Assembly: GCA_041664925.1 (NCBI GenBank)
Contig: JBAYJV010000001.1
Location: forward strand, 213,438-277,437
Source of the DNA: Minisyncoccota bacterium
Lineage (GTDB): Bacteria; Patescibacteriota; Minisyncoccia; JBAYJV01
DNA: 64,000 bases
Reading direction: 5' to 3'
A program made the position numbers and the translations under genes. This document shows, in pieces, positions 4,882 to 60,167 of the stretch (position 1 is its first letter; every line of letters starts with the position of its first letter). Below the pieces are notes generated by a model. It was not told the origin of the DNA and ran no database searches. It saw nothing but the letters and a program-made list of their open reading frames with translations.

Positions 4882-4974
4882 CTTTGTTCCTCCTTTATAG
4901 AACAGGACTTTTTGTCCCGCACCATAAACACGTTGTTTAAAGTACTGTATCTGTATTCTATGGTATTTTTTTAA

Positions 4975-5031
4975 AAAAGTCAATCTATTTAGTAATATTA
5001 TTGACAAGTTTGAAATAATTTGATAGGATGT
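4975..5031. promoter_or_regulatory. back-to-back divergent sigma70-like promoters (minus: TTGACT-17-TAGAAT; plus: TTGACA-17-TAGGAT)
   Basis: hexamers read directly; -35 boxes about 20 bp apart. Confidence 0.6.
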
Positions 5032-7200: not shown

Positions 7201-8193
7201 TTATCCCAATATCTCCATAATCGTTTTTGCCAATTTATCCGAATCATGACGAATCAAGGTTCGTTTTAATAAATCACTTTTTTCTTGTTTGTGAATTTCT
7301 CTACTTAACAAATTTTTACCTATAAATACCTTGCCATCTTTTTTGAAATTCTTTTCAGATGGAACCTTTACAAGTTCGCCTTCTTTATTATATTTATTAA
7401 GTAATTTTTTGTCAGGCGTTTCTGTATTAAATAAAACAATGTCAATTGTATTTTTTTCTAGATAACTTTCAATGGTTTGAACAAAATCAAATACAGAAGA
7501 ATTGTCAGCCTGACCATGTTTGGTCATTAAATTAATATTATAGAGAATCTTTGCTTTGGTTTGTTTTAGTGCTTTTGTAACACCATCAACTAAAAATAGA
7601 GGAATTAAGCTTGAGTAAAAATTGCCCGGCCCGATGATAATCAAATCTGCTTCTTTGATTGCAAAAAATGCTCTTGGATTTATTTTCGCTTTTGGTTGCA
7701 AAAATATTCTTTTTAGAGGATGTTTCCTTAATAATTTACATTCGGTAATTTCGTGTTCGCCAAAAAGGATCTTGCCATTTTCTAGTTCTGCCAATAATTT
7801 TGCTTTATTTAAAGTTACAGGAATGACTTTGCCTTGCAATGCTAAAATCTGATGGAGTTTTTCAAGCGCTTGATCAAAGCCACCTTCCATTTTTTCCAGC
7901 GCGGAGATCAAAAGATTGCCTAAGTTATGGCCCTTGAGTCCTCCTTTTGTAAAACGGTAACAAAAAAGCTCGCGCATAATTTCAGAAGATTCTGAAAGCG
8001 CTACCAAGCATTGTCTAATATCTCCGGGAGGAAGCACGCCCAATTCATCGCGTAAGATTCCGCTTGAACCGCCATCATCGGTCATAGCAACAATCGCGCT
8101 AAGATTAACTGGGTATTTTTTTAATCCACGCAAAACTGTATAGGTTCCAGTTCCTCCGCCCATAACAACAATTTTTTTTGTTTTAGCTGTCAT
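7201..8193 (-). CDS. YvcK/CofD-like gluconeogenesis factor family protein (UPF0052)
   Basis: KIVVMGGGTG...TDDGGSSGILR signature. Confidence 0.7.
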   Translation of the reverse strand: MTAKTKKIVVMGGGTGTYTVLRGLKKYPVNLSAIVAMTDDGGSSGILRDELGVLPPGDIRQCLVALSESSEIMRELFCYRFTKGGLKGHNLGNLLISALEKMEGGFDQALEKLHQILALQGKVIPVTLNKAKLLAELENGKILFGEHEITECKLLRKHPLKRIFLQPKAKINPRAFFAIKEADLIIIGPGNFYSSLIPLFLVDGVTKALKQTKAKILYNINLMTKHGQADNSSVFDFVQTIESYLEKNTIDIVLFNTETPDKKLLNKYNKEGELVKVPSEKNFKKDGKVFIGKNLLSREIHKQEKSDLLKRTLIRHDSDKLAKTIMEILG

Positions 8194-8265
8194 TGGAATT
8201 AATATTTTAAAATAATGAATTTTTCCAGCACTTTTCACTTTTAATTTTTAACTTTGCATTTCTTA

Positions 8266-10095
8266 TTATTCTACTGTTACTGATTTTGCCAAATTTCTCG
8301 GCTTATCAATGTCGCAACCACGCAACACCGCTACATAATAAGCAAATAATTGAAGAGGGATAACGCTTAAAATCGGCGTTAACATTTCAAGAGTTTTCGG
8401 AATATAAATAATGTCTTTAGTTATACTTTGTATTTTTTTATCTCCTTCGGTCGCAATCGCTAAAAATGGCCCTTTTCTTGCTTTAATTTCCTCCATAGCT
8501 GAAACTATTTTTTCATAAACACTGTCTTTGGGAGCTAAAAAGAAAGTCGGGAAATTTTCATCAATCAGAGCAATCGGACCGTGTTTCATTTCTCCAGCTG
8601 AATATCCTTCAGCGTGAATATAGGAAATTTCTTTAAGTTTCAATGCTCCTTCTTCTGCGACCGGAAAATTATATTTGCGTCCTAAATAAAAGAAGTCGTT
8701 GTAGTGACAATATTTTTTCGCTAAAGATTTAATAGTATTTTTTTTATCCAATACATTTTCTGCCAGTTCCGAAAGTTTGCCTAACTCATCAATAATTCTT
8801 CTTCCCATTACAAGTGACATATTTCTTTGCCTTCCTAAAAAGACCGTTAAAAGGGCTAGTACAACCAATTGAGATACAAATGCTTTTGTTGAAGCCACAC
8901 CGATTTCCGGACCAGCATGATTATAAATTCCCGCATCAGTTTCTCTGGCAATCGTCGATCCGACAACATTGATAATTCCCAAGGTTAGTACTCCTCTTCT
9001 TTTTGCTTCTCTTATTGCTAATAAAGTATCAATAGTTTCTCCTGATTGAGAAATTGCCAAGATAGCAGTATCTTCGTTCAAGATTGATTTTCGATAACGA
9101 AATTCAGAAGCATTTTCAACTTCGACAGGAATTTCCGCATACTCTTCAATCATGTATTTCCCAACCTTGCCCGCTAAAAGGGCAGTTCCCATGCCCAAAA
9201 TAATAATTCTTTTTATTTTCTTTAATCTGTCTTCCACTAGCTCTAATCCACCAAGTTTAACCATTCCATCTTTTGGAACAATTCTTCCTCTTATCGCATT
9301 CTCAATAACTTCTGGGATCTCATTCATTTCTTTCAACATAAAATGATCATATCCTGATTTCTTAGCCTGTCCAATGTCCCAATCAAGATAATTAGCTGAT
9401 CTTTCTATCTTTTTATTGTCAAGTGTTGAAAGAGAAAAATCTTTATCAGTAATTACTCCTATTTCTCCATCATTTAAATAGATAACTTTTCTGGTGTGAG
9501 CCAAAATTGCCGCTGCATCAGAGGCAATAAAGTTTTCGCCATCGCCCAATCCAACAATTAAAGGACTCGAGTTTCTGGCAAAAACGATTTTTTCAGGATC
9601 TCTTTTCGAAATTACAGCAATTGCATAGGCACCAATAACTTGCCTTAGTGATTTTTTAACCGCTTCTTCGAGAAGATTTTCAAAATTATCTTCGATAAGG
9701 TGAGTTAGAATTTCCGTATCTGTTTCGGTAATAAATTTGTGTCCTTTTTTTTGTAGTTTTTCTTTTATGGTTTTTGCGTTCTCTATAATGCCGTTATGAA
9801 CAAGATAAATTTCTTTTTTGCAATCCCATATGGGATGGGCATTTTTATCTGATGGCTCTCCGTGAGTCGCCCACCTGGTATGAGAAAGACCAGTATTGCC
9901 AGTAATTGTTTTTCCTGAAATTGTTCTTTCTAAATTCTCTATTCTTCCTTTCTTTTTATAACAACCGCCCTTGCCATTTTTACCAATTACAACTATGCCA
10001 GCTGAATCATAGCCACGATATTCAAGTCTTTTAATGCCTTCCATCAATATAGAAAAGGCTTGTTTTTTACCAACATAACCAACTATTCCACACAT
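8266..10095 (-). CDS. glmS: glutamine--fructose-6-phosphate aminotransferase
   Basis: MCGIVGY N-terminal nucleophile, two SIS domains, C-terminal VTVE. Confidence 0.9.
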   Translation of the reverse strand: MCGIVGYVGKKQAFSILMEGIKRLEYRGYDSAGIVVIGKNGKGGCYKKKGRIENLERTISGKTITGNTGLSHTRWATHGEPSDKNAHPIWDCKKEIYLVHNGIIENAKTIKEKLQKKGHKFITETDTEILTHLIEDNFENLLEEAVKKSLRQVIGAYAIAVISKRDPEKIVFARNSSPLIVGLGDGENFIASDAAAILAHTRKVIYLNDGEIGVITDKDFSLSTLDNKKIERSANYLDWDIGQAKKSGYDHFMLKEMNEIPEVIENAIRGRIVPKDGMVKLGGLELVEDRLKKIKRIIILGMGTALLAGKVGKYMIEEYAEIPVEVENASEFRYRKSILNEDTAILAISQSGETIDTLLAIREAKRRGVLTLGIINVVGSTIARETDAGIYNHAGPEIGVASTKAFVSQLVVLALLTVFLGRQRNMSLVMGRRIIDELGKLSELAENVLDKKNTIKSLAKKYCHYNDFFYLGRKYNFPVAEEGALKLKEISYIHAEGYSAGEMKHGPIALIDENFPTFFLAPKDSVYEKIVSAMEEIKARKGPFLAIATEGDKKIQSITKDIIYIPKTLEMLTPILSVIPLQLFAYYVAVLRGCDIDKPRNLAKSVTVE

Positions 10096-27936: not shown

Positions 27937-29022
27937 TTAGATTAAGCTGAATAATTCTTTTTCATTAAACGATCTTGCACCTTTTCTTTTGTTATTCCTA
28001 ATTAATTTTCCTTCTTTTTCTAATGAAACAAGAACCTCCTTAAAGTCTTGTTTCCTATAACAGTGTTTTCCTGTTAATAATCTATCTAATATCTTATCCA
28101 ATGAAATATTAACTGTTCCATTAAATACTTTATACACTTCTATTTTTAAATCTTGCAAAAAAAACAAAGTATTTCTTGTTGGTTCTTTTTTAACAAACTC
28201 ATCTTTCATTTTTTCCAATCCTCTAAGATTTTTCGTAGCATATATTAAATAGTAAATGTGATTGCCTATTGAATTTTTAATGTTTTTAACAGCATAGTAT
28301 TTAAAACCAATTGAAATCAGATTTGTAAGATATATGTCTAGATATTTTTCTCTTGCAACTCTTGGAGAAATCCTATTCTTTTTTCTTTCTCGATATACAT
28401 TCTTCCAATCCTTGCAACCAAAAATTAAATCAATTTTATTTTCCATTTCCATATTGATTTCTTTCTTCTCTTCTAGTGGCATATAACGACTAATTGCCAT
28501 ACCGAAAGGAAAATTAATTAAAGCCTCTGCTTTGCTTCTCTCTCCGATCTTTCTAATTGTATCCCAATATAAATCTCCTGCTTGAGGATCTAGTAAAGCC
28601 ATAAAAGGTGTATTTTCATTAAATTGCTTTAAGATTGAATCAATTTCTTTATTGCAATCACCATTTTTTATTACAACGTTCCTTTTGGAAAAATCTCCGC
28701 TTACAATATTTTTTAAACAATCACATTTGTTTTGATCTAGTTCAATAAAAAAATATTTAGTAAATGGAGGTTCTATGCTTAATGATATTAACGTTGATCC
28801 TTTCTTGGTTTCTTTTGTCTTTTTGGTTTTACAAAGCCCAGAGCCAGCAAATGCATCAATAAAACAATATTCTTTAAAGCCTGCAAAATTTAAAATATTT
28901 GAATAAGCACCCAAATATTTTCTAATATATTCTAATTTTAACTCTGTCCATTTTCCTATATCGTTACCGAAAACCTTTTTTGCCATATTTTTATAAATTA
29001 TTATATTTTTTCTTAAATCCAT
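27937..29022 (-). CDS. SAM-methyltransferase-like protein, possibly three-Cys-motif partner (TcmP-like)
   Basis: FIDAFAGSGL motif-I-like box; adjacent to the three-Cys protein; track start at 29049 overlaps the upstream terminator. Confidence 0.4.
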   Translation of the reverse strand: MDLRKNIIIYKNMAKKVFGNDIGKWTELKLEYIRKYLGAYSNILNFAGFKEYCFIDAFAGSGLCKTKKTKETKKGSTLISLSIEPPFTKYFFIELDQNKCDCLKNIVSGDFSKRNVVIKNGDCNKEIDSILKQFNENTPFMALLDPQAGDLYWDTIRKIGERSKAEALINFPFGMAISRYMPLEEKKEINMEMENKIDLIFGCKDWKNVYRERKKNRISPRVAREKYLDIYLTNLISIGFKYYAVKNIKNSIGNHIYYLIYATKNLRGLEKMKDEFVKKEPTRNTLFFLQDLKIEVYKVFNGTVNISLDKILDRLLTGKHCYRKQDFKEVLVSLEKEGKLIRNNKRKGARSFNEKELFSLI

Positions 29023-29055
29023 TTTAACGAACAATAAATAATTATGCAAAAAAAT

Positions 29056-34606: not shown

Positions 34607-35188
34607 ATGAAAGAAACTCTAAAAAACTTAACCAAGGCCTTTATCGGCGAATCTCAAGCGAGAAATCGCTACACTTTTTATTCAAGAGTTGCTCAAAAAG
34701 AAGGTTACGAACAAATCGGCGAAATTTTCCTCCTAACGGCTGATAATGAAAAAGCTCATGCCAAGAGACTCTTTGAGCATATTCAAGAATTAAAGAAAGA
34801 AGAAAAAGATTCTAGTGAAGTTACGGTTGAAGCTGGTATGCCAGCAGTTTATGGAACAACTATAGAAAACTTGAAAGCATCAATTGAAGGCGAAAACTTT
34901 GAAAATACAAAAATGTACCCAGAGTTTGCTGACACAGCCGAAAAAGAAGGTTATCTAGAAATCGCTAAAAGGTTGAAGGCAATTGCCATGGCTGAACTTC
35001 ATCACAAAGAAAGATACGAAAAACTTTTAGCGCAACTTGAGGCTGGAACGGTTTTTAAAAAAACAAAAGAAACTTGGTGGGTTTGTCGTGAATGCGGCTA
35101 TATCCATTTTGGCACCACTCCTCCAGAAGCTTGCCCATCTTGCGATCACCCGACCGCTTTTTATCAGGTCCAGTGTGAAAATTATTAA
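34607..35188 (+). CDS. rbr: rubrerythrin
   Basis: ferritin-like E...EXXH pairs plus C-terminal CxxC...CxxC rubredoxin domain. Confidence 0.8.
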   Translation: MKETLKNLTKAFIGESQARNRYTFYSRVAQKEGYEQIGEIFLLTADNEKAHAKRLFEHIQELKKEEKDSSEVTVEAGMPAVYGTTIENLKASIEGENFENTKMYPEFADTAEKEGYLEIAKRLKAIAMAELHHKERYEKLLAQLEAGTVFKKTKETWWVCRECGYIHFGTTPPEACPSCDHPTAFYQVQCENY

Positions 35189-35196
35189 ATATAACT

Positions 35197-35574
35197 ATGA
35201 CAAAATTAAACCAAATTTATCGCTGCAATATTTGCGGCAATATCGTTGAGATGATTCATGAAGGCGCTGGCCAGCTTGTTTGTTGCGGACAGGCCATGGA
35301 ATTACTTCTAGAAAAAACCGAAGATCAAGGAGCAGAAAAACATCTTCCTGTCGCAAAAAAAATTGATGGTGGTGTCAGAATAAAAATTGGCTCTGTCGCT
35401 CATCCTATGGAAAAAGAACATTATATTGAATGGATAGAAATCATCACTGAAGATGGGAAAGTTGGCAGAAAGTTCTTGCGTCCCGACGACAAACCAGAGG
35501 CTGATTTTTTCACGCCAAGTTCGCCAAAAACATTTAGAGCTTATTGCAATCTTCACGGATTGTGGAAGGCATAG
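35197..35574 (+). CDS. dfx: desulfoferrodoxin / superoxide reductase
   Basis: N-terminal CNICGN...CCG desulforedoxin domain + SOR domain. Confidence 0.75.
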   Translation: MTKLNQIYRCNICGNIVEMIHEGAGQLVCCGQAMELLLEKTEDQGAEKHLPVAKKIDGGVRIKIGSVAHPMEKEHYIEWIEIITEDGKVGRKFLRPDDKPEADFFTPSSPKTFRAYCNLHGLWKA

Positions 35575-35580
35575 TAAAAA

Positions 35581-36708
35581 ATGAATACTAAAGAAACTGT
35601 CGGTATTATTGTTCACAAATACGAAAATCCCAATATTTTTTCTGTTCCCTATGGAGAGCAGAATAATTTTTTTAATGAACTATTAATAGAGGCAAAAAAA
35701 ATAAATTTAGAATTGTTTATTTTCCAACCAAAAGATATTAATTGGAAGAAAAAAACTATTAAAACTTTTGTCAATATAAACAATAACTTTATTGAAAAAG
35801 AAATGCCTCTTCCCGACATAGTTTACGACAGAATGTTTTCCAAGACAGCTCAAGAAATCGAAATTTTCAAAGAAGTCCATAAAAAATTTAATCAACTAAA
35901 TATTTTAATTGTTAATTCGAGAAAGTTTATCAAATTGACATGCAATAAATGGGAATTTTATCAATTGTTATATAAAAATAAATTTTTTAGACCCTATCTC
36001 CCCAAAACTTTTCTTTATGAAATAAATATTGCTAAACATTTATTAAAAAAGTGTCGAGCTGTTATTTTAAAACCAAAATACGGAGGACTGGGAACCGGAA
36101 TTATTAGTGTTATTAAAAAAAATTTTATCTTACCAATCTATATTATTGAGTATCAAACTAAAAATAATAGCATTCACAAAAAATATAAAAAATTTAACAT
36201 TTCTCTAAAAACAATTTCATCTTTGATCGAAAAAGGTTGGAAAAGAGGCGGTGGTTATATCGTCCAAGAAAAACTGACTGTAGCTCAATATCAAAAAAGA
36301 GTTTTTGATCTCAGGGTCATGATGCAAAAAACAAAAAAGGGCTGGTCTGTAAGCGGTATTGGCGGAAGAGTCGCCCCTCTAAAAGGATTCTTGGCCAATA
36401 TTCATGCTGGAGGAACAATAGAAAATGGAGTAGATATAATAAAAAATGTTTTTCCTAAAAAATCTACAATCATTCTTAGAAAAATTAAAAAACTTAGCGT
36501 AGCCTTAGCCAGTTATTTAGAAAAGTCCACGGGACCGGCTATCGAAATGGGGGTTGATTGTATCCTAGATAAGAGAGGAAATATCTGGATTATAGAAGTA
36601 AATTCAAAACCTTCGCGATTCATATTTTCTCGAAAAGATATGCTCCATCTTAGAAAAAAAATGATCTTACGACCATTACTATATATGAAGTGGTTAATTG
36701 AGAATTAA
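35581..36708 (+). CDS. YheC/YheD-family ATP-grasp protein
   Basis: KPKYGGLGTGI ATP-grasp-like phosphate-binding loop; overall architecture. Confidence 0.5.
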   Translation: MNTKETVGIIVHKYENPNIFSVPYGEQNNFFNELLIEAKKINLELFIFQPKDINWKKKTIKTFVNINNNFIEKEMPLPDIVYDRMFSKTAQEIEIFKEVHKKFNQLNILIVNSRKFIKLTCNKWEFYQLLYKNKFFRPYLPKTFLYEINIAKHLLKKCRAVILKPKYGGLGTGIISVIKKNFILPIYIIEYQTKNNSIHKKYKKFNISLKTISSLIEKGWKRGGGYIVQEKLTVAQYQKRVFDLRVMMQKTKKGWSVSGIGGRVAPLKGFLANIHAGGTIENGVDIIKNVFPKKSTIILRKIKKLSVALASYLEKSTGPAIEMGVDCILDKRGNIWIIEVNSKPSRFIFSRKDMLHLRKKMILRPLLYMKWLIEN

Positions 36709-36738
36709 AACTACTTGTCAAATTTATTAGAAAAACAG

Positions 36739-36778
36739 CTCGTTAATTGAGCTGTATTTTTGTTTTTTTATAGATTGT
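36739..36778. terminator. bidirectional terminator ACAGCTCgttaattGAGCTGT flanked by A/T runs
   Basis: between convergent genes. Confidence 0.65.
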
Positions 36779-37696
36779 TTATTTTTTAAAAAAGACTCTT
36801 TGAGGAATTTTTTTTAAATGCCATCGTTCCTTCCATCCTAAATCTTCTACGCCAGCATCAAGGTATTTTGTTCCAAGAGAAATTGCCTTTTCAAAATTCT
36901 TTGCTGTTAAGTACGTTCCAAGACTAGGAAAATCTTTTTTGTTTGCCCCTGAGTTTATATAAGTGTAGATGTCTTTATATTTTAGCGCCAAAGATACTGC
37001 TTCTTTTTTGCCATTTATAATAATCGTCAGAACTTGAAAACTTAAATCAAGTTTGAGCAAATCTCGAAAAATTTCTTTTCTATGAGGCGTACTAAAAACA
37101 GAATCATCACCAAAACTTCTAATATTTAATTCAAATAATTGATCAACGTCTTCAAAATTATTTTCAAGAATCTTTGGTTGATATAACCTTTCAATTCGAC
37201 GAAGAAGTTTTTTCATTTTGGCGCACGACTTTTGACTGAATTCCCTTGAAAGATAATCATTGGTATTTTTAAGACCAGAAAGATCAGCAACATATTTATA
37301 TTCCAGAATATCGAATTTCTTTGTAAAATCGTCTTCTCCAATAATATCATCTAGTCCCGCTTCTTGCTCAATGGCCTCATAAAATTTAGGAATATATTTT
37401 TCATAACCAGATTTTATGAATATCCGATTATCTTCCATATAACCACCACCAATAAAATCTAAATATCCTTTTTCGGCATTAAATTGTAGCGGAAGCAAGC
37501 CAATATTTTCTTGACCAATTCGTCCTACATAAAAAAATAAGGGATGCTGGAAATACTTATAAAAACAGTATCTCACATCCCAAAGATCATACATGATTTC
37601 ATTAGGACTTAACTCTTGCCAAACTTTTTTTGCTTCTTCTATTTTATCAATTCGGCTAATTTTCAATTTTTGATCACTGCTATCTTTAGGCATCAT
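36779..37696 (-). CDS. GNAT-fold acyltransferase (FemAB/CelD/BioF2-like, Acetyltransf_6-type)
   Basis: size and secondary-pattern resemblance; no catalytic motif verified. Confidence 0.4.
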   Translation of the reverse strand: MMPKDSSDQKLKISRIDKIEEAKKVWQELSPNEIMYDLWDVRYCFYKYFQHPLFFYVGRIGQENIGLLPLQFNAEKGYLDFIGGGYMEDNRIFIKSGYEKYIPKFYEAIEQEAGLDDIIGEDDFTKKFDILEYKYVADLSGLKNTNDYLSREFSQKSCAKMKKLLRRIERLYQPKILENNFEDVDQLFELNIRSFGDDSVFSTPHRKEIFRDLLKLDLSFQVLTIIINGKKEAVSLALKYKDIYTYINSGANKKDFPSLGTYLTAKNFEKAISLGTKYLDAGVEDLGWKERWHLKKIPQRVFFKK

Positions 37697-37700
37697 ATAT

Positions 37701-40163
37701 TTAGAGCACGCTCGGTTGGAGATGATGATAGGGAGGGTGATTTTTATATCTTTTTATCGCCATCCTGATAATCTCTTCCAAAAAATCTCCATAATCCAAC
37801 CCAATTACTTTTGCTGAATTAGGCACAGAGTCGCCAATATTAATCGAAGGGTTGGGATTTAATTCCAAAACATAGGGGTTATTATTTTTATCTACTCTCA
37901 ATTCGACTCGTCCATAATCATGACAATCTAAAATATTGTAGGTATCAAGAGCAATTTCAGTAATAAGTTTTGAAAGTTTCTTGCTAATATTTTTTGGTGG
38001 TCGTTGAATAGTGATTCCTTTGTCATAAGCATCATCTTCTTCCCATTTCGCTTCAAAAGGATAAATGTGCCAATATCCAGGAGGCATTTTATCAAACATA
38101 GACCTTGTTAGTGGCAAGACTCTTAGATCATCTTCTTCACTTCCTAAAATTGAAACATCATACTCATCTCCATCAATATATTCTTCTATAATCGCTGGTC
38201 GGCCAATTTCCATAATAATTTTTTCAAGTTGTTTTTCTAGTCTTTTTTTATTAGTTACCACCGAATCATTGGTAATGCCGATAGAATTGTCTGTGTTAGC
38301 TGGTTTTACTATCAATGGATACCTTAGATCCTCTCTGATATCGTCCTCTAAACTATAAATATAATCCCATTTCGGTGTCGGCATATTGTGGAATGCCAGC
38401 AACTTTTTAACCCTAATCTTGTCAATGCATAATCCAAGAGTAAATGAACTTGATCCCGTATAAGGAATTTGAAGCGCGTCTAAAATTGCCGCGGCATGGG
38501 GTTCAAGCAGACTTGATTCATTGATTCTTTCGCAGACATTAAAGATAAGATCGACATCGCTCTTTCTTAAATCTTCGAGTACGCGCGAAAGATTATTAAA
38601 ATCAAAGAAAGTCACTCGATATCCCCGTTCTATCAGGGTTTTTTCAATATTCTTTCCAACTGACATTAAATCTTTCTCAACTGCCCCAGCATTTTCATCA
38701 TAAAAATTACATGCAATACCAATATGGAGATTTCTCTGATTTTTTATCGACATTCTTCTAATCTTTTCAATTTTTCCGCTCCTAATAAGAATGTCTTGAT
38801 TGATAGCTGAAGGTGAAAAATGATTTTTACGCAATGTTTTTCCAATCGATGAAGCCGATTGAAAACGAGCCACTTCATAATTAACGCAATCCAAGGCCTC
38901 TTTTAGATTGTCTTGAGCATCTAAAGGATTATCGCCAGAAACCACAATCCATCCCAAATATTCGTACCCTTCAGGTGGCACCAAGACGGGATCGCCAATT
39001 TTTTTAAAAAATTCGATTTCTTCTACAAATGGTTTCTTCTTTATTTTCTCATCTATGTCAAATTGAACAATAATGCCAGAGTAATTGCTTAAAAAATCAT
39101 GTGACGCTAAATACATGTAAGGATTTTCTGGCTTATTGATTTTCGGAAAATATATTCCTAGGGCAATTTTGGCAGCTCCTTCGATAAAATCAATACGCCA
39201 AGCTTTTTTTATACTGTCGTAAATTTCATCTCCTCCCATTCTTAAATTAACCTCGATTGGCACAGGACCTTCTTTTGTTGATTTAGCTTCAAGATGAATA
39301 CAGCCATCTTGTATTCCCAGTTTTTCCAAAATTTCATCGGCCATAACTATAAGAGCCTCTTTATTTTTTTCTGGCAAACCCGATGGCGTTAAACGTCCCG
39401 TTTCGACAAAAAATGGTTCATTGGTTTTATTATTATCAGAAATAGAATGAAACTTAACTCTGCCATTTTGAATTAAAATATCGATATCAACCTCATCCCC
39501 GTCAATGTATTCTTCTATCATTATGTCTGTTCCGTCATTAAGCGCAGATTCCACCTCAGTATTAATGCTTTTTTTAATATATTGATAAGTTGATGTTAAT
39601 TCTTCTTCATTGTCGACTCTTACAACAAAGGCGCTGCTTGCTCCAAATGTTGGTTTAATCACTAAGGGAAATCCTAATTCCTTTGAAATTTTCTTTAAAT
39701 CCTCTGCTGATTTGACCATAATATGCCTTGGTGTCGGTAGGTTATTTTCTTGACAAAATTCACGAAACAGATATTTATTTCTAACCCTCTTTGAAATATT
39801 AAGAGGGATGCCTATAAAATTAAATTTATCTGTTATTTTTGAAGTCAAAAGAACATCGTCTTCCCAAAAAGTAATTGCTCCGTCAATTTTTATATTGGGA
39901 TTATTTGCCATAAAATCTTTTATGGCTTGGATTGATTCTGTATGATTGGTGTTATCTGCCAAAATCCAGTGATCAACATAAGGTTGCGCCCAGTTTTTTT
40001 CTTTATTGAGCACCACTATTTGAAGTCCCATTTTCTTAAGCTTCTGAATTACAAAACGCTTCTTAATAGAACCAGTATTTACCAAAAGAATTGTTTTTCC
40101 TAAAAGAGAATTTACGCCATTGTTTGGATTTAAAATTTTATCGTTATGATGACTATCTTTCAT
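37701..40163 (-). CDS. tandem ATP-grasp ligase (N-terminal ATP-grasp + C-terminal D-Ala-D-Ala-ligase-like ATP-grasp)
   Basis: FPLVIKPTFGASS and YPLIVKPANTDNS phosphate loops; DYGRVELRVDKNNNPYVLELNPNPSI Ddl-like C-terminus. Confidence 0.65.
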   Translation of the reverse strand: MKDSHHNDKILNPNNGVNSLLGKTILLVNTGSIKKRFVIQKLKKMGLQIVVLNKEKNWAQPYVDHWILADNTNHTESIQAIKDFMANNPNIKIDGAITFWEDDVLLTSKITDKFNFIGIPLNISKRVRNKYLFREFCQENNLPTPRHIMVKSAEDLKKISKELGFPLVIKPTFGASSAFVVRVDNEEELTSTYQYIKKSINTEVESALNDGTDIMIEEYIDGDEVDIDILIQNGRVKFHSISDNNKTNEPFFVETGRLTPSGLPEKNKEALIVMADEILEKLGIQDGCIHLEAKSTKEGPVPIEVNLRMGGDEIYDSIKKAWRIDFIEGAAKIALGIYFPKINKPENPYMYLASHDFLSNYSGIIVQFDIDEKIKKKPFVEEIEFFKKIGDPVLVPPEGYEYLGWIVVSGDNPLDAQDNLKEALDCVNYEVARFQSASSIGKTLRKNHFSPSAINQDILIRSGKIEKIRRMSIKNQRNLHIGIACNFYDENAGAVEKDLMSVGKNIEKTLIERGYRVTFFDFNNLSRVLEDLRKSDVDLIFNVCERINESSLLEPHAAAILDALQIPYTGSSSFTLGLCIDKIRVKKLLAFHNMPTPKWDYIYSLEDDIREDLRYPLIVKPANTDNSIGITNDSVVTNKKRLEKQLEKIIMEIGRPAIIEEYIDGDEYDVSILGSEEDDLRVLPLTRSMFDKMPPGYWHIYPFEAKWEEDDAYDKGITIQRPPKNISKKLSKLITEIALDTYNILDCHDYGRVELRVDKNNNPYVLELNPNPSINIGDSVPNSAKVIGLDYGDFLEEIIRMAIKRYKNHPPYHHLQPSVL

Positions 40164-40541
40164 AGTGATATTTTGAATAAAAAAAGACCCGCTTTCTTTT
40201 TTGTTCTAAAGAATGATTGCGAGTTTAATTGAACCAAGGTCTTGCCAGGAGGCTCGTCTCCTTCGTCAACGCTAGTCGATAATGAATCAGAAATTGGTTT
40301 CTTAAATAAATTTTTCATTCGTTATTTTTTAATTCCTATAAAGATAATATCTCCTTCGTCGATTTTATTCCTATCAGAATAATAATCCCTTTCCTCTCAT
40401 TGTCAATATGTGAATAATTTCTCTTTTATTGGCCAAAAACGGTTGATTTGTATAGCTATCAAGTGCTTCAGAAATTCTCTTGCTAAGCTGTTTTTATATG
40501 ATAACCTGAAATTAGAATAGTACTTTTTAAAAGGAGGAAAT

Positions 40542-44198: not shown

Positions 44199-44231
44199 TA
44201 AAAAATAAAATAAATCTATTAAATTTTGACC

Positions 44232-44882
44232 ATGACTACTATTCTTTCCTATATAGTTAATCAAGGTGTCTCCGAACAAGTTTTGTCATATATCTTGTTG
44301 GCACCGCTCGTAGCGACCTTGATTGTTTTTTTAAGGCAGGTAATCGGATTAAAAAGCTTAGGCGTCTATCATCCTCTTCTTTTGGCTTTTGCCTTCGCTA
44401 GCGCTGGATTAAAAGAAGGGCTGTTTTTTTTCCTGTTAATTGTCCTTCTTGCTAATGCTATAACATATGTAGTTAAAAAGTTTCCCCTTCTTTACCTTCC
44501 GAGACTGACAATCGTTGTGACAGTCACCACTCTAGCTTTAATTTTAGTTATATCAATTATTCGTCTTTCGGATTACAGTTTAGCGCTAAGTGGTTACTTT
44601 CCTATTATCATCATCCTTGCACTAAGCGATAAGTTAGTCACCGCTCAAATGAAAAGAAATATAAAACCCGCATTGATTTTAACTGGCAGCACCCTTGCAG
44701 TAGCTCTTTTGGGATATTTTATTCTTAATATTGTTTGGTTACAAAACATTGTTTTAAATTATCCTTTAATTTTTCTTCTGGTTATAGTCGTGATAAATAT
44801 TTTTCTCGGACGTTTTCATGGTCTTCGTTTAAATGAGCTCTGGCGTTTTCGTCATCTCTTAAAATTACCTCCAAAGAATTAA
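44232..44882 (+). CDS. 7-TM membrane protein partnered with the RimK-like ligase (7TM 'inactive-transglutaminase-fused'-type family)
   Basis: about 7 hydrophobic helices; stop overlaps the next start (TAATG). Confidence 0.45.
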   Translation: MTTILSYIVNQGVSEQVLSYILLAPLVATLIVFLRQVIGLKSLGVYHPLLLAFAFASAGLKEGLFFFLLIVLLANAITYVVKKFPLLYLPRLTIVVTVTTLALILVISIIRLSDYSLALSGYFPIIIILALSDKLVTAQMKRNIKPALILTGSTLAVALLGYFILNIVWLQNIVLNYPLIFLLVIVVINIFLGRFHGLRLNELWRFRHLLKLPPKN

Positions 44883-46180
44883 TGTTCAATACCCTTAAAA
44901 ACTATCACGGCATTTTGGGACTTAATGCTCGAAACTTAGACTATGTTATCAAAAAACATGGTCAACGTCTTGATGTTGCCAATAATAAATTGTTGACAAA
45001 AAAAATTCTTCAAGGCGCTGGTTTGCCGATGCCAGAAACATATTTTGTTATTCGCAATAAAAAAGATTTTAATAAATTTAATTGGGACCTACCTAAATCG
45101 TTCGTTATCAAACCAAGTCGCAGCTTAGGCGGCGAAGGCGTGTTGATTGTCTATGGCAAGAAAAAAAATATTCCTACATGGATTAAAGCAGGACAACGAT
45201 TAATAGACTTAGAAGAAATCAAACACCATATTTATAATATTCTTGAAGGTAATTTCAGCCCTAAGGAAAAAGAAGATAGGGCTATTTTTGAAGAACGCGT
45301 TAAGTTACATCCCGCTTTTAAACCGTATACATTTAAAGGAGGCATTCCTGACGTTAGAGTTATTGTCTATCAAAAGATTCCTATAATGGCTCAACTGAGA
45401 TTGCCCACAGAAGAATCAGAAGGACGAAGCAATTTACATCTTGGAGGTATTGGAGTAGGCATTGATCTAAAAACTGGCATTACTACAACCTCTATCCTCC
45501 ATGATCATTTTATAGATAAAATTCCGGGCACAAGACACATTTTGTCTGGCATTCAAATTCCTTATTGGAAAGATGTTTTGAGAATTGCCGCTCTTGCTCA
45601 AAAACATGCTGGCATCGACCTTCTTGGTATTGATATCGCCATAGATAGAGAAAAAGGTCCGATGATTTTTGAAATAAATTCAAGGCCAGGCATTGCCATT
45701 CAAATGGCAAATCAATCTCCGTTAAGAGAAAGATTGGAAAGAATTGAAGGACTTAAGATCAAGTCAGCCAATCGGGGAACAAAAATTGCTCAAGAACTTT
45801 TTGGCGGAGAAGTTGAGGAAGAACTTGAAGAGATTAGTGGACGAAAAGTTATTGGTTTGTTTGAATTTATCGATATTATTGGTCCAAATAATAAAAAACT
45901 CAGACTGACTGCCAAGATTGATACTGGCGCCTATCGAACTTCTGTCGACAAAGATGTAATAGATAAACTTGGCTTGAAGGAAAGTAAAAAAAAGATTAAA
46001 TTTGTTTCATCTCTCGGAGGAGAGGAAAGATCCCTTGTTGATTTGGCTTTTTCTCTTGCGGGGCAAAGCATAGAAACAGAAGCTTCAATTGCTAATCGAT
46101 CAAATTTAAAATATAGCATAATTATTGGCAGACGCGATTTAAATCTTTTTCTGATTGACCCATTAAAGAAGATTAGTTAA
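44882..46180 (+). CDS. alpha-L-glutamate-ligase-like (RimK-related) ATP-grasp fused to C-terminal retropepsin-like DTGA aspartic protease
   Basis: FVIKPSRSLGGEGV ATP-grasp loop; C-terminal AKIDTGAYRTSV and IIIGRRDL. Confidence 0.65.
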   Translation: MFNTLKNYHGILGLNARNLDYVIKKHGQRLDVANNKLLTKKILQGAGLPMPETYFVIRNKKDFNKFNWDLPKSFVIKPSRSLGGEGVLIVYGKKKNIPTWIKAGQRLIDLEEIKHHIYNILEGNFSPKEKEDRAIFEERVKLHPAFKPYTFKGGIPDVRVIVYQKIPIMAQLRLPTEESEGRSNLHLGGIGVGIDLKTGITTTSILHDHFIDKIPGTRHILSGIQIPYWKDVLRIAALAQKHAGIDLLGIDIAIDREKGPMIFEINSRPGIAIQMANQSPLRERLERIEGLKIKSANRGTKIAQELFGGEVEEELEEISGRKVIGLFEFIDIIGPNNKKLRLTAKIDTGAYRTSVDKDVIDKLGLKESKKKIKFVSSLGGEERSLVDLAFSLAGQSIETEASIANRSNLKYSIIIGRRDLNLFLIDPLKKIS

Positions 46181-46195
46181 TAAATTATTCATAAC

Positions 46196-48826
46196 ATGGC
46201 AAAAAGAAAATACTACCGCCATCAGGACGGAGTCGGTAGTATTCCTATAAATAAAAAAAGAAAATATCATGCTTGGCGCAAAAGAAGTTTTAGTGCTTAC
46301 CTGCGTCTATTTTTTAAATTAAGTCTTATTGGGATTGCTTCGTTGTTTTTTGTTATTCTTCTGGCTTTCATCTATTACACCAAAGATCTTCCTAATCCTC
46401 AGGAAGTCCTCAATAAGCCATTTGATCAATCTACAAAAATTTATGCTCGTGATGAAAAAACTCTCCTTTATGAAGTCTTTAATGGTGGAAAAAGAACTGT
46501 TGTTGGCATTGAAAACATTTCTCCTTACGTCATAAATGCGACCATAGCCATAGAAGACAATAATTTTTATAAGCATCCCGGTATTGATTTCAGGGGAATT
46601 TTGAGATCTGCCTGGATTGCGGTAAAAACCGGTGGACAATATGTTCAGGGAGCATCAACGATTACTCAGCAATTTGTTAGAAATTCTCTCTTAACTCTTG
46701 ATCGGACTATCAGTAGAAAATTAAAAGAAATTATTTTGTCATTGGAACTAGAAAGAAGATACACAAAAAATGACATTTTGGCTTTCTATTTAAATCAAAT
46801 ACCCTACGGATCAAATACCTACGGTGTTGAATCAGCCAGTCGGGCCTTTTTTGGAAAATCAGTTAAAGATGTCACTTTGGGAGAAGCCGCAATTCTAGCT
46901 GCCATACCCAAAGCCCCATCAAAATATTCTCCTTATGGTACTAACCCCGAACTTCTTTTGGGTCGCCAGAAATTAGTCTTAAAAAGAATGAAAGATCTTG
47001 GATATATTACAGAAAAGGAAATGACTGATGCTTTGGCAGAAAAGATTGAATTCCAGAAACAAAAAACTGGATTTAAGGCTCCTCATTTTGTCATGTATAT
47101 CAAAGAACAATTAGAGGCAAAATATGGTAAAGATGTTATCGAAACGGGAGGGCTTCATGTTTATACAACTCTTGATTGGGATTTACAGCAAAAAGCTGAA
47201 GAAATTGTCTCAAAAAATGGTGTTCAAAATGAAAAAGAGTTTGGCGCAAAAAATGCTGCTTTAGTTGCTATCGATCCTAGGACTGGTGAAATTTTATCTA
47301 TGGTTGGTTCCAGAGATTATTTCGACACAGAAAATGATGGCAATGTAAATGTTGCCCTTAGACCTCGCCAGCCCGGATCTGCCTTTAAGCCTTTTGCTTA
47401 TTCAACTGCTTTCGCAAAAGGATATACGCCAGACACAATTCTTTATGATGTTAAAACTGAGTTCAATCCTTATTGCCTCTCTAGCGCTGTTCAAGCCAAG
47501 GATCAGTTCGGCTTAGACTGCTATCATCCTAATAATTATGACAATAACGAGCGTGGTCCTCTCACGATGCGCTCAGCCTTAGCTCAATCACTTAATATTC
47601 CTTCCGTTAAAACTCTTTACCTGGCAGGAATAGACGACACGATTGCGCTGGCAAAAAAAATGGGCATTTCTACCCTTGAAGATCGATCACGCTTTGGATT
47701 AGCTTTAGTTCTTGGCGGAGGCGAAGTTAAGCTTCTAGAATTAACCTCAGCTTACGGGATTTTTGCTACCGAAGGATTAAAAAATAATTATTACAGCATT
47801 GTTCGCGTTGAGGATGGTAAAGGAAATATCCTTGAAGAATATAAGCCCGAACAGCCAGAAAGAGTTTTGGATCAAAATGTTTCTCGATTGATCACTGATG
47901 TTTTATCAGATAATAATGCTCGCGCGCCGATATTTGGCACTGCCAGCTCCTTGTATTTTGGAGATACTCCTGTAGCGGCAAAAACTGGAACAACTCAAGA
48001 TTATCGAGATGGTTGGACAATTGGTTATACGCCAAATTTCGTCGCTGGTGTTTGGACCGGCAATAATGATAATTCATCTATGGGTAAAACTGCTGGCATC
48101 AGAACTGCCGGACTGATTTGGCATGAATTTATGCTCGAAGCTCTAAAAAATAGAGAAAAAACAAGCTTTAATCCGCCAACTATTGCTGTTCCAGATAAGC
48201 CGGTATTAAGAGGAGTGGTCGGCGGAGAGACTGTTAAGATAGATACTGTTTCTGGCAAGCGAGCTACTGACTTAACACCGCCGGAATTAATAGAAGAAAA
48301 AACTTTTTTGAAGGCCCATTGCATTCTTTACTATGTAAACAAAGATGATCCTCAGGGTCCTGCGCCAACAAATCCAGCTGATGATCCTCAGTTTAATAAC
48401 TGGGAACAAGCTGTTAGGTCGTGGGCGCAAGATCCAGCAAGAGGCAATCTTGTCGAAGAAATCCCTCCTCAAGAATTTGACAATATTCATACGCTAGAAA
48501 ATAAACCGATTCTTGAGATATTATCGCCCGGCAACGGCGATACGCTCAGAAGCGATACTGTTAGAATTTCCGCTGATGTCAGGGCTAATTATCCAATTAA
48601 AGAAGTAGATTTTTTCTTTGACGATATTTTCCTGGGATCAAAAGTTTCCTCTCCTTATGATTGGAGTTTTAAACCATCAGGAGATCAATTGTTGGGTCGT
48701 CACAAAATCACGGTTAAGGCCTATGACATCTATCTAAACTCATCCGCAAAGAGTATTAATATTACAACTGATATTGGAAATATTTCTGATAGCAGCGAAG
48801 CAACAGGTACCATTATAATTCCGTAA
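46196..48826 (+). CDS. class A penicillin-binding protein (second copy) with ~250-aa C-terminal extension
   Basis: AIEDNNFYKHPGID GT51 motif; RQPGSAFKP SxxK motif. Confidence 0.8.
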   Translation: MAKRKYYRHQDGVGSIPINKKRKYHAWRKRSFSAYLRLFFKLSLIGIASLFFVILLAFIYYTKDLPNPQEVLNKPFDQSTKIYARDEKTLLYEVFNGGKRTVVGIENISPYVINATIAIEDNNFYKHPGIDFRGILRSAWIAVKTGGQYVQGASTITQQFVRNSLLTLDRTISRKLKEIILSLELERRYTKNDILAFYLNQIPYGSNTYGVESASRAFFGKSVKDVTLGEAAILAAIPKAPSKYSPYGTNPELLLGRQKLVLKRMKDLGYITEKEMTDALAEKIEFQKQKTGFKAPHFVMYIKEQLEAKYGKDVIETGGLHVYTTLDWDLQQKAEEIVSKNGVQNEKEFGAKNAALVAIDPRTGEILSMVGSRDYFDTENDGNVNVALRPRQPGSAFKPFAYSTAFAKGYTPDTILYDVKTEFNPYCLSSAVQAKDQFGLDCYHPNNYDNNERGPLTMRSALAQSLNIPSVKTLYLAGIDDTIALAKKMGISTLEDRSRFGLALVLGGGEVKLLELTSAYGIFATEGLKNNYYSIVRVEDGKGNILEEYKPEQPERVLDQNVSRLITDVLSDNNARAPIFGTASSLYFGDTPVAAKTGTTQDYRDGWTIGYTPNFVAGVWTGNNDNSSMGKTAGIRTAGLIWHEFMLEALKNREKTSFNPPTIAVPDKPVLRGVVGGETVKIDTVSGKRATDLTPPELIEEKTFLKAHCILYYVNKDDPQGPAPTNPADDPQFNNWEQAVRSWAQDPARGNLVEEIPPQEFDNIHTLENKPILEILSPGNGDTLRSDTVRISADVRANYPIKEVDFFFDDIFLGSKVSSPYDWSFKPSGDQLLGRHKITVKAYDIYLNSSAKSINITTDIGNISDSSEATGTIIIP

Positions 48827-58733: not shown

Positions 58734-60167
58734 ATGTCTAACCAAGAAATATCTAAAATTTTATATGAAATATCGGAATATTTAGAGATGGAAGATGAGC
58801 CGTTTCGTCCGATTGCCTATAACAGAGCAGCCCGCGTGATTGATTTGCAAAACCGAAGCCTTTCGGCAATTTATGATCGTGAAGGCATCAAGGGACTTGA
58901 TAGAATTCCTGGCATTGGCCAAGAAATTTCCAAGAAAATTGAGGAATTGCTTTTGACTGGTAGATTACAATATCTTGAAAAACTCAAAGCCGAATCGCCC
59001 GTTGATGTATCAACCCTCACAAAGATAGAAGGATTGGGCCCTAAAAAAATAAAGACACTTTATCGCGAATTAGATATTCGAAACCTTGATGATTTGGTAA
59101 AAGCTGTTCAATCTCACAAGATCAGAGACCTTGATGGTTTCGGTGAAAAATCAGAAGCCAATATTTTAAAAGGGATTGATGCTTTAAAAAATCAAAAAGA
59201 AAGATTGCCCCTTGAAAAGGTCCTGCCTGTCGCCCGAGACATTAAGCAAAAATTGGCATCGCTTCCAGAAGTAAAAAAAGTTGAAATCGCTGGATCGATT
59301 AGAAGGAAAAAAGAAACCGTTGGTGATATTGACGTTTTAGTAGTATCTGATGATCCGAATAAGGTTGCTGATTTTTTTGTAACCCTTCCTCAGATCGTTG
59401 ATGTATACGGTAAGGGAAAAACCAAGTCATCTGGAAGATTAGATATCGGCATTGATGTTGATTTGCGAATTGTTCCGGAAGATTCCTTTGGAGCAGCACT
59501 TCAATATTTTACTGGAAGCCAAGTCCATAATATTAAATTAAGAAGCCTTGCACGTAAAAAGGGCTATAAATTGAGTGAATACGGACTTTTTAAGGGAAAT
59601 GAAAAAATTGCCGGTAAAACCGAAGAAGAAATTTACCAAAAACTTGGTATCAGATATATCGAACCAGAAAAAAGAAAAGGAGAAAACGAAATTGTCATTA
59701 CTGATACCAATATTCACGAAAAATCAGTAGGCACAGTCATTTTTTATAAAACACAGAATAAAAAAATTGAGTACCTGTTACTTCATTATCCTAAAGGAGT
59801 AAGAACAAAATTTCATGGACATTGGGACCATGTGAAGGGCCATGTTGATGAAGGGGAAAGTGAAACAGAAACATTAATCCGAGAAATTGAAGAAGAAACT
59901 GGACTTATACACGGTGACCTTGAAATCATAGACGGATTTAGAGAGGACATCCATTACAATTTTAGAACCGAACGCGGTCTTCATTATAAAGAAGTTATTT
60001 TCTATTTGGTCCGTTCGAATACAAAAGAAGTTCATATCTCTGAAGAACATGATGATTACAAATGGCTCTTGTACGAAGATGCGCTTGAGACAATTACTTT
60101 TCAGGGAGGAAAAGATATTTTGACAAAAGCAAATGCGTTTTCTATAAAAATGTTTCATGACCAATGA
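58734..60167 (+). CDS. DNA polymerase beta-like (PolX) nucleotidyltransferase fused to a C-terminal NUDIX hydrolase domain
   Basis: HhH-rich N-terminus, GSIRRKKETVGDIDVLV PolX box; C-terminal GHVDEGESETETLIREIEEETGL Nudix box. Confidence 0.65.
   Translation: MSNQEISKILYEISEYLEMEDEPFRPIAYNRAARVIDLQNRSLSAIYDREGIKGLDRIPGIGQEISKKIEELLLTGRLQYLEKLKAESPVDVSTLTKIEGLGPKKIKTLYRELDIRNLDDLVKAVQSHKIRDLDGFGEKSEANILKGIDALKNQKERLPLEKVLPVARDIKQKLASLPEVKKVEIAGSIRRKKETVGDIDVLVVSDDPNKVADFFVTLPQIVDVYGKGKTKSSGRLDIGIDVDLRIVPEDSFGAALQYFTGSQVHNIKLRSLARKKGYKLSEYGLFKGNEKIAGKTEEEIYQKLGIRYIEPEKRKGENEIVITDTNIHEKSVGTVIFYKTQNKKIEYLLLHYPKGVRTKFHGHWDHVKGHVDEGESETETLIREIEEETGLIHGDLEIIDGFREDIHYNFRTERGLHYKEVIFYLVRSNTKEVHISEEHDDYKWLLYEDALETITFQGGKDILTKANAFSIKMFHDQ

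Follow-up and report, generated by a model that had tools for sequence, protein, structure and literature searches.

L-amino-acid ligases (LALs), among them BL00235 of Bacillus licheniformis, RizA, BacD/YwfE and TabS, have a three-domain ATP-grasp fold with a LAL_C2 domain, and both they and D-alanine-D-alanine ligases (Ddl) work through acyl-phosphate intermediates. Two sequential ATP-dependent amide ligases are joined in one polypeptide in GshF, which makes a tripeptide and whose second module is a Ddl-like ATP-grasp. FemX/FemABX, Sba18/Sbb17 of streptothricin-type pathways and MprF C-terminal domains share a tandem-GNAT fold that spans about 300 residues and lacks the FemA coiled coil, and Fem/MprF-type GNATs use aminoacyl-tRNA in cell-wall and antibiotic pathways (PMC2922099). 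Here we describe a locus that brings relatives of all these enzymes together, in a 64,000-nucleotide stretch of a Minisyncoccota bacterium (contig JBAYJV010000001.1; the whole stretch is called the window below). It encodes an 820-amino-acid (aa) fusion of an LAL-type and a Ddl-like ATP-grasp module, followed by a FemX-fold GNAT. From sequence, fold and gene context, we consider it probable that the fusion and the GNAT form a short non-ribosomal peptide assembly line specific to Patescibacteria (Candidate Phyla Radiation).

The genes of the locus are as follows; the minus-strand unit is read in the order small open reading frame (ORF), fusion, GNAT.

40160-40318, minus strand: small upstream ORF, 52 aa; its stop overlaps the fusion ATG by 4 nt
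37701-40163, minus strand: fusion gene with two ATP-grasp modules, 820 aa; PF13535 and PF18603, PF07478
36779-37696, minus strand: tandem-GNAT, FemX-fold transferase gene, 305 aa; PF13480; 4 bp 3' of the fusion
35581-36708, plus strand: YheC/D-family ATP-grasp gene, 375 aa; PF14398

The original prediction, which was made from the DNA sequence, had placed a YheC/YheD-like ATP-grasp gene, a FemAB-like transferase gene and a gene for two fused ATP-grasp modules, one of them Ddl-like, in this region. An ORF listing and a Pfam profile search found all three at those positions with those domains, and Pfam and Foldseek agreed on the fusion. The three ORFs are not chance reading frames, because they are long and intact, give strong profile matches and have full-length homologues in the hundreds.

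An LAL-type and a Ddl-like module in one polypeptide

The fusion was divided into the following parts.

38865-40097, minus strand: N-module, aa 23-433, LAL-type ATP-grasp with LAL_C2 domain
38730-38864, minus strand: inter-module linker, aa 434-478, predicted to be disordered, sequence conserved (SSIGKTxRKN, KIEKIRR)
37740-38729, minus strand: C-module, aa 479-808, Ddl-like ATP-grasp, PF07478
37842-37919, minus strand: motif DYGRVELRVDKNNNPYVLELNPNPSI, quoted in the original prediction, residues 749-774 of the fusion
37704-37739, minus strand: C-terminal tail RYKNxPPYxHLQ, aa 809-820, conserved and predicted to be disordered

The N-module matched PF13535 (ATP-grasp_4; E 2.2e-33, 115.6 bits, cut-off 27) and PF18603 (LAL_C2; E 1.7e-11, 44.7 bits, cut-off 29.4). 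Its best sequence match in the PDB was the LAL BL00235 (3vot, E 2.7e-31), and in a Foldseek search it reached a template-modelling (TM) score of 0.85 to the same structure, at 24% identity, followed by RizA and BacD. The ATP, Mg and catalytic residues are kept: K130, K170, E292, E304, N306 and R308, the last three forming an E-x-N-x-R motif, are invariant or nearly so in sets of 58 and 39 homologues, and K130, K170, E224, H290, E292, K294, E304, N306, R308 and G310-G311-D312 are invariant in the 39. What sets the N-module apart is its fusion to a second ligase, as no characterised LAL is so fused, and the distribution of its family, which is almost wholly confined to Patescibacteria and highly conserved there.

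The C-module matched the Ddl C-terminal domain (PF07478; E 1.4e-37, 129.6 bits, cut-off 24) and reached TM scores of 0.83-0.85 to the Ddl structures 3r5x and 8evz. Residues K582, K586, K620, E660, E661, E667, K706, R752, E754, E767 and N769 are invariant in 39 homologues, and in 39-58 homologues the lysines that bind ATP, the Mg ligands and the catalytic arginines vary little or not at all in either module. We aligned the C-module to Yersinia pestis Ddl, which is numbered like E. coli DdlB. The C-module keeps counterparts of K97, K144, R255, E270 and N272, whereas S150, Y216, S281 and L282 are replaced by N626, W707, D778 and serine or cysteine at position 779, and the replacements are conserved family-wide. 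These four DdlB residues bind D-Ala at the substrate site, where the serine at position 281 contacts the carboxylate of D-Ala2; an aspartate in its place hints at an acceptor bearing a positive charge.

A simpler account of the C-module would be a housekeeping D-Ala-D-Ala ligase that was accidentally fused to an unrelated LAL. Its best family matches are indeed Ddl models, the Ddl fold and the ATP, Mg and R255-equivalent residues are intact, and the 64-kb window holds no second Ddl gene. However, the C-module stays below both NCBIfam Ddl cut-offs (NF002378, 208.1 against 243; TIGR01205, 160.4 against 245.65), whereas a canonical patescibacterial Ddl (Taylorbacteria, L065), which is only 24% identical to it, passes the same models with 271.3 and 257.5. 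In addition to the replaced substrate-site residues, the C-module lacks the dcw context of Ddl, is fused behind an LAL and co-varies with peptide-tailoring genes (see below); a conserved mur or fts neighbour of the fusion was found in none of 45 non-redundant genome-collection loci and 80 metagenome loci. We therefore regard a housekeeping Ddl as very improbable. Ordinary Ddl or MurF paralogues were the outcome that the original prediction had set against itself; because the NCBIfam cut-offs are failed and the DdlB substrate-site residues are replaced, the C-module is neither. In databases the fusion carries no label but 'ATP-grasp domain-containing protein' or 'D-alanine-D-alanine ligase', and the latter is wrong.

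The AlphaFold model of the fusion (mean predicted local distance difference test score, pLDDT, 82) contains two well-folded modules, and its predicted TM score (pTM) of 0.59 leaves their mutual orientation uncertain. The linker falls below a pLDDT of 50 at residues 436-463, and S438, G441, T443, K464 and E466 are invariant in the 39 homologues; the tail does so at residues 811-820, with R805, Y806, P810, P811, Y812, H814 and L815 invariant in the tail region. That a linker and a C-terminal tail predicted to be disordered are nearly invariant suggests that these loops have a function, for example as lids, as docking sites or as a carrier within the molecule. The only proteins with two ATP-grasp modules in the PDB were carbamoyl-phosphate synthetases, in which the modules are arranged differently from those of the fusion (root-mean-square deviation about 27 Å). 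GshF, which resembles the fusion in carrying two sequential amide ligases, differs in that a GshA-type ligase takes the place of the LAL ATP-grasp as its first module; no GshF structure appeared among the PDB sequence matches of the fusion.

Two different amide ligases in one chain is also the logic of cyanophycin synthetase, and weak matches to the ATP-grasp models of that enzyme were obtained. If the fusion worked in the same way, its modules would alternate and produce a poly-amino acid or a poly-dipeptide. The match to TIGR02068 reached 67.3 bits against a cut-off of 850, however, the fusion has neither a Mur-ligase-type M domain nor a primer-binding N domain, no cyanophycinase lies nearby, and the accessory enzymes described below point to discrete small peptides; a polymerase is thus extremely improbable.

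A FemX-fold GNAT family linked to the fusion

The protein encoded directly downstream of the fusion, and translationally coupled to it, matched PF13480 (Acetyltransf_6, E 2.1e-10). Its AlphaFold model, built with 35 homologues, has a pLDDT of 96 and comprises two GNAT domains in tandem. The best Foldseek match was FemX of Weissella viridescens (7z6a, E 5.5e-10, TM 0.63), and the aminoacyl-tRNA-dependent peptide synthases Sba18/Sbb17 (TM 0.65-0.67), MprF C-terminal domains and FemA were also found; VipF and glucosamine N-acetyltransferases were likewise among the structural matches. The earlier description of this protein as FemAB-like is thus right at the level of the fold. The GNAT shares the tandem architecture without coiled coil of FemX, Sba18/Sbb17 and MprF and, like Sba18/Sbb17, lies in a gene cluster of small-molecule type; it differs from them in that sequence identity is only 11-14% and in that it matches PF13480 and not the Pfam FemAB family PF02388. 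A few of its homologues also carry PF04339 (FemAB_like).

The GNAT gene lies next to the fusion in 11 of the 45 genome loci, and in 36 of the 80 metagenome loci it is directly downstream on the same strand. The GNAT-bearing loci are scattered over several separate clades of the fusion-protein tree, and the linkage is therefore recurrent and not merely inherited: fusion and GNAT constitute a genuine functional pair. The GNAT family comprises about 100 clusters, and all those with a source label are from Patescibacteria.

More distant homologues of the GNAT (36-39% identity) occur as a tandem pair behind a stand-alone LAL on two Patescibacteria contigs of about 1.08 Mb (L073 and L074), in the order LAL-GNAT-GNAT. 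This LAL is 45% identical to the N-module over its full length (aa 23-435), and the evolutionary core is therefore an LAL with a Fem-like GNAT. Directly upstream of LAL-GNAT-GNAT on both contigs is a stretch of about 2.4-2.6 kb in which no genes were called (L074, 2346-4755; L073, 1213-3853); the ORF listing, available for the L074 stretch, contained no ORF longer than 82 aa.

Distribution of the fusion and its variable partner genes

More than 120 full-length homologues of the fusion were found at 63-95% identity, and every one with a source label is from Patescibacteria, including Peregrini-, Gracili-, Pacei-, Roizman-, Komeili- and Buchananbacteria among others. All of these homologues are encoded as one ORF. 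Metagenome contigs contributed at least 451 relatives, and a HMMER scan of 1.8 billion cluster representatives yielded about 12 full-length fusion clusters at 50% identity, together with stand-alone N-module-like and C-module-like proteins. A 'Candidatus Paceibacterota' metagenome-assembled genome (MAG) is the recorded source of sequences 100% identical to the GNAT and YheC/D proteins of the window. A fusion of 29% identity in a MAG labelled Bdellovibrionales has the gene order fusion-LAL-decarboxylase-LAL-SET, which is the same syntax as in Patescibacteria. Matches in Dehalococcoidia/Chloroflexota and in one Bacteroidota MAG (30-34% to the C-module) were set aside as stand-alone pairs and not fusions. 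At L048-L057 (about 7900-10000 in each), adjacent stand-alone Ddl-like genes (about 333 and 359 aa) are both below the Ddl family cut-offs; these pairs are a different two-ligase arrangement, which is also uncharacterised.

Comparison of the 125 neighbourhoods revealed that the fusion is the core of a far larger and variable gene cluster across Patescibacteria, which the original prediction had missed. Other partners recur, all on the same strand as the fusion. One is a genuine dipeptide epimerase from the enolase superfamily, whose profile matched 3jva at E 2.7e-65 and YkfB of B. subtilis at 1e-63; an attempt to read epimerase specificity from the YkfB Arg24 position, which is Glu in the patescibacterial epimerases, was dropped because the best structural relative, 3rit, has Arg. 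Extra LAL-like ligases occur paired with a pyridoxal-phosphate decarboxylase of the ornithine/diaminopimelate (DAP)/arginine family, which is closest to lysA, with a further match to the N-citrylornithine decarboxylase FslC. The commonest partner in the genome-collection loci is a protein of about 460 aa with an SFGK[E/D]S motif and a CxxCxxC motif; it had no Pfam or NCBIfam match, and the best hit in a PDB profile search was the PP-loop of TtuA (E 0.11), so that we call it PP-loop-like, tentatively, from the SFGK[E/D]S motif. A SET-domain methyltransferase, usually after the GNAT, and an ABC exporter complete the set. Extended clusters include fusion-epimerase-PP-loop-c14-LAL-decarboxylase at L039 and fusion-GNAT-SET at L118. 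The window itself carries neither epimerase nor decarboxylase. Upstream of the fusion at L072 (about 4600-5000), near-identical peptide strings are repeated in several frames, which indicates that the DNA itself is directly repeated here, as an array or as what is left of a mobile element.

The extended clusters follow the same logic as an engineered route to L-Cys-D-Val, in which an LAL forms the L,L-dipeptide and a dipeptide epimerase inverts the C-terminal residue, and which works (PMC13338154). Rhizoferrin FslA/FslC and butirosin BtrJ/BtrK resemble the clusters in pairing a ligase with an Orn/DAP-type decarboxylase that is able to use an amide-linked amino acid. In all three precedents, however, the enzymes are separate and the organisms unrelated.

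These neighbourhoods also bear on a role in the cell wall, in which the fusion and the Fem-like GNAT would act on peptidoglycan, making or altering a side chain, a cross-bridge or a precursor of the stem peptide; an ATP-grasp could, for example, add a D-amino-acid branch while an aminoacyl-tRNA route adds an L-amino-acid or glycine branch. ATP-grasp ligases are known to form D-amino-acid cross-links and Fem ligases Gly/L-amino-acid cross-links (PMC2922099). The top structural match of the GNAT is a peptidoglycan branch transferase, the C-module is Ddl-like, the partner epimerase belongs to the L-Ala-D/L-Glu epimerase group and the partner decarboxylase is nearest to DAP decarboxylase; the fusion is highly conserved across Patescibacteria, and two class A penicillin-binding proteins (PBPs) are encoded in the window. 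However, none of the 125 loci has a conserved mur or dcw link, and the recurrent SET methyltransferase, ABC exporter, PP-loop-like protein and extra LALs are typical of small-molecule clusters. Dipeptide epimerases, moreover, act on free dipeptides, the GNAT does not match PF02388, and many fusion loci have no GNAT. A cell-wall role is, in our judgement, unlikely, though it has a real share of the probability. This variable cluster favours a small modified peptide over the cell-wall cross-bridge that was among the products first suggested.

The YheC/D gene belongs to another transcription unit

The YheC/D gene, which matched PF14398 strongly (E 1.8e-61, 208.1 bits, cut-off 26.8), adjoins the fusion-GNAT unit on the opposite strand. 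The original prediction had counted it in a cluster of three ATP-grasp domains and had it facing the operon; it does adjoin the operon from the other strand, but the two are not head-on, being convergent (tail to tail) with the GNAT gene 70 bp away. The features that concern it are these.

34607-35188, plus strand: rubrerythrin, first gene of the YheC/D unit
35197-35574, plus strand: desulfoferrodoxin, second gene of the YheC/D unit
36735-36755, hairpin with a T-run on both strands, in the space that separates the convergent GNAT and YheC/D genes: candidate bidirectional terminator
44226-46180, plus strand: 7TM_transglut (PF14402) and ATPgrasp_ST pair, the ligase with a RimB/retropepsin-like C-terminal tail
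44882-46180, plus strand: fourth ATP-grasp gene of the window (ATPgrasp_ST), outside the studied cluster
46196-48826: class A PBP, directly after the ATPgrasp_ST ligase

Rubrerythrin, desulfoferrodoxin and YheC/D are packed with gaps of 8 and 6 bp, YheC/D being the last, so that the proposed three-member cluster finds no support. The candidate terminator has stems of 8 and 7 pairs; it is weak evidence, as terminator-like sites are not in excess in the region (5, against 4.0 in shuffled sequences). That an ATP-grasp ligase closes an oxidative-stress operon (34607-36708, plus strand) is an unexplained arrangement, and at L071 an MscS channel gene is inserted in this unit.

A system of three ATP-grasps, in which YheC/D works with the fusion and the GNAT, would draw on its position: YheC/D adjoins the operon in the window, in L066/L067, in L071, where it is directly convergent with the fusion, and in L076. 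Nevertheless, it lies on the opposite strand, 6 bp 3' of desulfoferrodoxin, and it was found at none of the 44 other genome loci and at one of the 80 metagenome loci (L076, 96% identical), the remaining 79 lacking it; beside the fusion it otherwise occurs only in the nearest relatives of the window, L066/L067 and L071. Both YheC/D and the GNAT are present in L066/L067 and L076, but only YheC/D in L071 and only the GNAT in L070; the two genes are therefore gained and lost independently. The family is also nearly absent from Patescibacteria: among 5.8 billion proteins there were three close homologues, one at 40% identity, and then Bacillota at no more than 33%. A joint system of this kind is thus highly unlikely; because YheC/D lies in another strand and unit, is restricted to the nearest relatives and varies independently of the GNAT, it is not part of the fusion-GNAT system.

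The 40% homologue may point elsewhere. It lies on another Patescibacteria contig, L068 (5673-11566), within an array YebC-RuvC-7TM_transglut-ATPgrasp_ST-YheCD-ATP-grasp-racemase-MurD, with the ATPgrasp_ST ligase on one side and, on the other, MurD, an Asp/Glu racemase and a ligase of the ATP-grasp_3 type; the array looks like a D-amino-acid cell-wall branch operon. The array YebC-RuvC-7TM-ATPgrasp_ST is conserved in the relatives L066, L068 and L070, and by analogy YheC/D may belong functionally with the 7TM_transglut/ATPgrasp_ST system of the window.

A small ORF coupled to the fusion

The 52-aa ORF that overlaps the start of the fusion begins MKNLFKKPISDSLSTSVDEGDEPPGKTLV and sits 3' of the best promoter-like site on the minus strand of the region.

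40379-40406, minus strand: TTGACA-16-TATTAT, a sigma-70-like promoter candidate that agrees with the consensus at 11 of 12 positions and lies upstream of the small ORF and the fusion

This site, too, is weak evidence, since promoter-like sites in the region number 28 against 24.9 in shuffled sequences, which is no excess. In independent lineages (L007/L070, L011, L028, L029, L071, L083, L088 and L152) the fusion is likewise closely preceded by small ORFs in which PP[G/N/S/Q] comes after an acidic run. The acidic-PP[G/N] motif was found in 4 of 44 genome loci, against 0.05 in shuffles, and a slightly broader pattern in 7 of 76 metagenome loci, against 0.2. Over the first 38 codons, the window differs from its 96%-identical relatives by 7 synonymous and 3-4 non-synonymous changes. 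The small ORF was detectable in only about 10% of fusion loci.

PPG and PPN are EF-P-dependent stalling motifs, and the simplest reading makes the small ORF a candidate regulatory leader peptide. Its product is possibly, instead, a peptide substrate; in that case the ligases would modify a ribosomal peptide or protein, this one or another, in the manner of RimK or the pheganomycin ligase PGM1. The coupling of the small ORF to the fusion, the recurrence of the motif in several lineages and the excess of synonymous over non-synonymous changes would suit such a substrate. However, it is present at so few loci, the LAL and Ddl families use free amino acids, and the dipeptide epimerase partner implies free dipeptides; we give a ribosomal substrate little probability. 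The leader reading fits better because the small peptides are unrelated outside the short motif.

Other features of the window

The G+C content of the window is about 35%, and typical patescibacterial housekeeping genes are present, the two class A PBPs included. G+C is lowest at 28-30 kb (0.279), where a 370-aa ORF without a Pfam match (27937-29049) is located. In a 477-aa protein (58734-60167, plus strand), a NUDIX domain is joined at the C-terminus to the domains of DNA polymerase X (beta-like HHH, palm and thumb).

Discussion

We propose that the fusion and the GNAT act in sequence. The N-module, with its LAL fold and intact ATP, Mg and catalytic residues, would use ATP to phosphorylate the carboxylate of one amino acid and couple it to the amine of a second, releasing a free dipeptide that, by the chemistry of its family, would be L,L. 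The C-module, a diverged Ddl paralogue with an intact core, would carry out a second ATP-dependent ligation and most likely add a third amine-bearing building block. The GNAT, which has a FemX fold and whose gene is tightly linked to the fusion, would then add a further residue to a free amine of the product, probably from aminoacyl-tRNA. From these steps one would expect a short peptide of three or four residues, possibly branched; what it is cannot be predicted from sequence, as the original prediction had already stated. That prediction had also suggested ATP-dependent, non-ribosomal peptide ligation, and with the conserved gene unit, the domains and the folds in hand, ribosome-independent peptide ligation by the fusion and a Fem-type GNAT is still the most plausible activity.

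The partner genes of related loci add to this proposal. The epimerase, which would turn the C-terminal residue from L to D, implies a free dipeptide intermediate. Decarboxylases, SET domains and Fem-like enzymes classically act on lysine-, ornithine- or DAP-type amines, and together with D778 these partners weakly suggest a peptide containing a diamino acid; the ABC exporter suggests secretion in some lineages. Taken together, the partner enzymes point to a small peptide that is tailored and probably exported and in which a diamino acid may be present.

Several points weigh against a peptide assembly line. Its evidence is that of sequence, fold and gene context. An identity of 60-70% across distant Patescibacteria is unusually high for secondary metabolism, and a housekeeping role, for instance in the envelope, would fit it better. 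The organism makes peptidoglycan, as its two class A PBPs attest, and the cell wall is the classical field of action of Fem transferases, Ddl-type ligases and L-Ala-D/L-Glu-type epimerases. The fold of the GNAT model does not by itself separate an aminoacyl-tRNA from an acyl-CoA donor, and with module orientation predicted at a pTM of only 0.59, channelling between the two active sites is unproven. Finally, no partner family lies near the fusion in about one-third to one-half of the loci, so the partner genes may be dispensable or encoded elsewhere.

The enzyme classes involved are all known already. No description of the LAL-Ddl fusion, of its exclusive partnership with a Fem-like GNAT family or of the modular cluster that extends across Patescibacteria was found in the literature searched. 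More tentatively, and with doubt outweighing conviction, we suggest that the fusion and its partners make a conserved, lineage-defining patescibacterial tri- or tetrapeptide, possibly containing a D-residue or a diamino acid and possibly exported, with an essential or host-interaction role, and that in some lineages its synthesis is under the control of a coupled leader with an acidic-Pro-Pro-Gly/Asn motif.

The ultra-small Patescibacteria are generally regarded as dependent on host cells, with almost all of their biosynthesis lost. In such biosynthetically minimal episymbionts, an ATP-costly ligation enzyme that is 60-70% identical across many lineages stands out, and it suggests a metabolite or envelope component that is indispensable to Patescibacteria and of a kind not described in them. 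Once the product is identified, ribosome-independent peptide synthesis would gain a new two-ligase architecture, and the product could serve as a chemical handle on the biology of Patescibacteria and their hosts.

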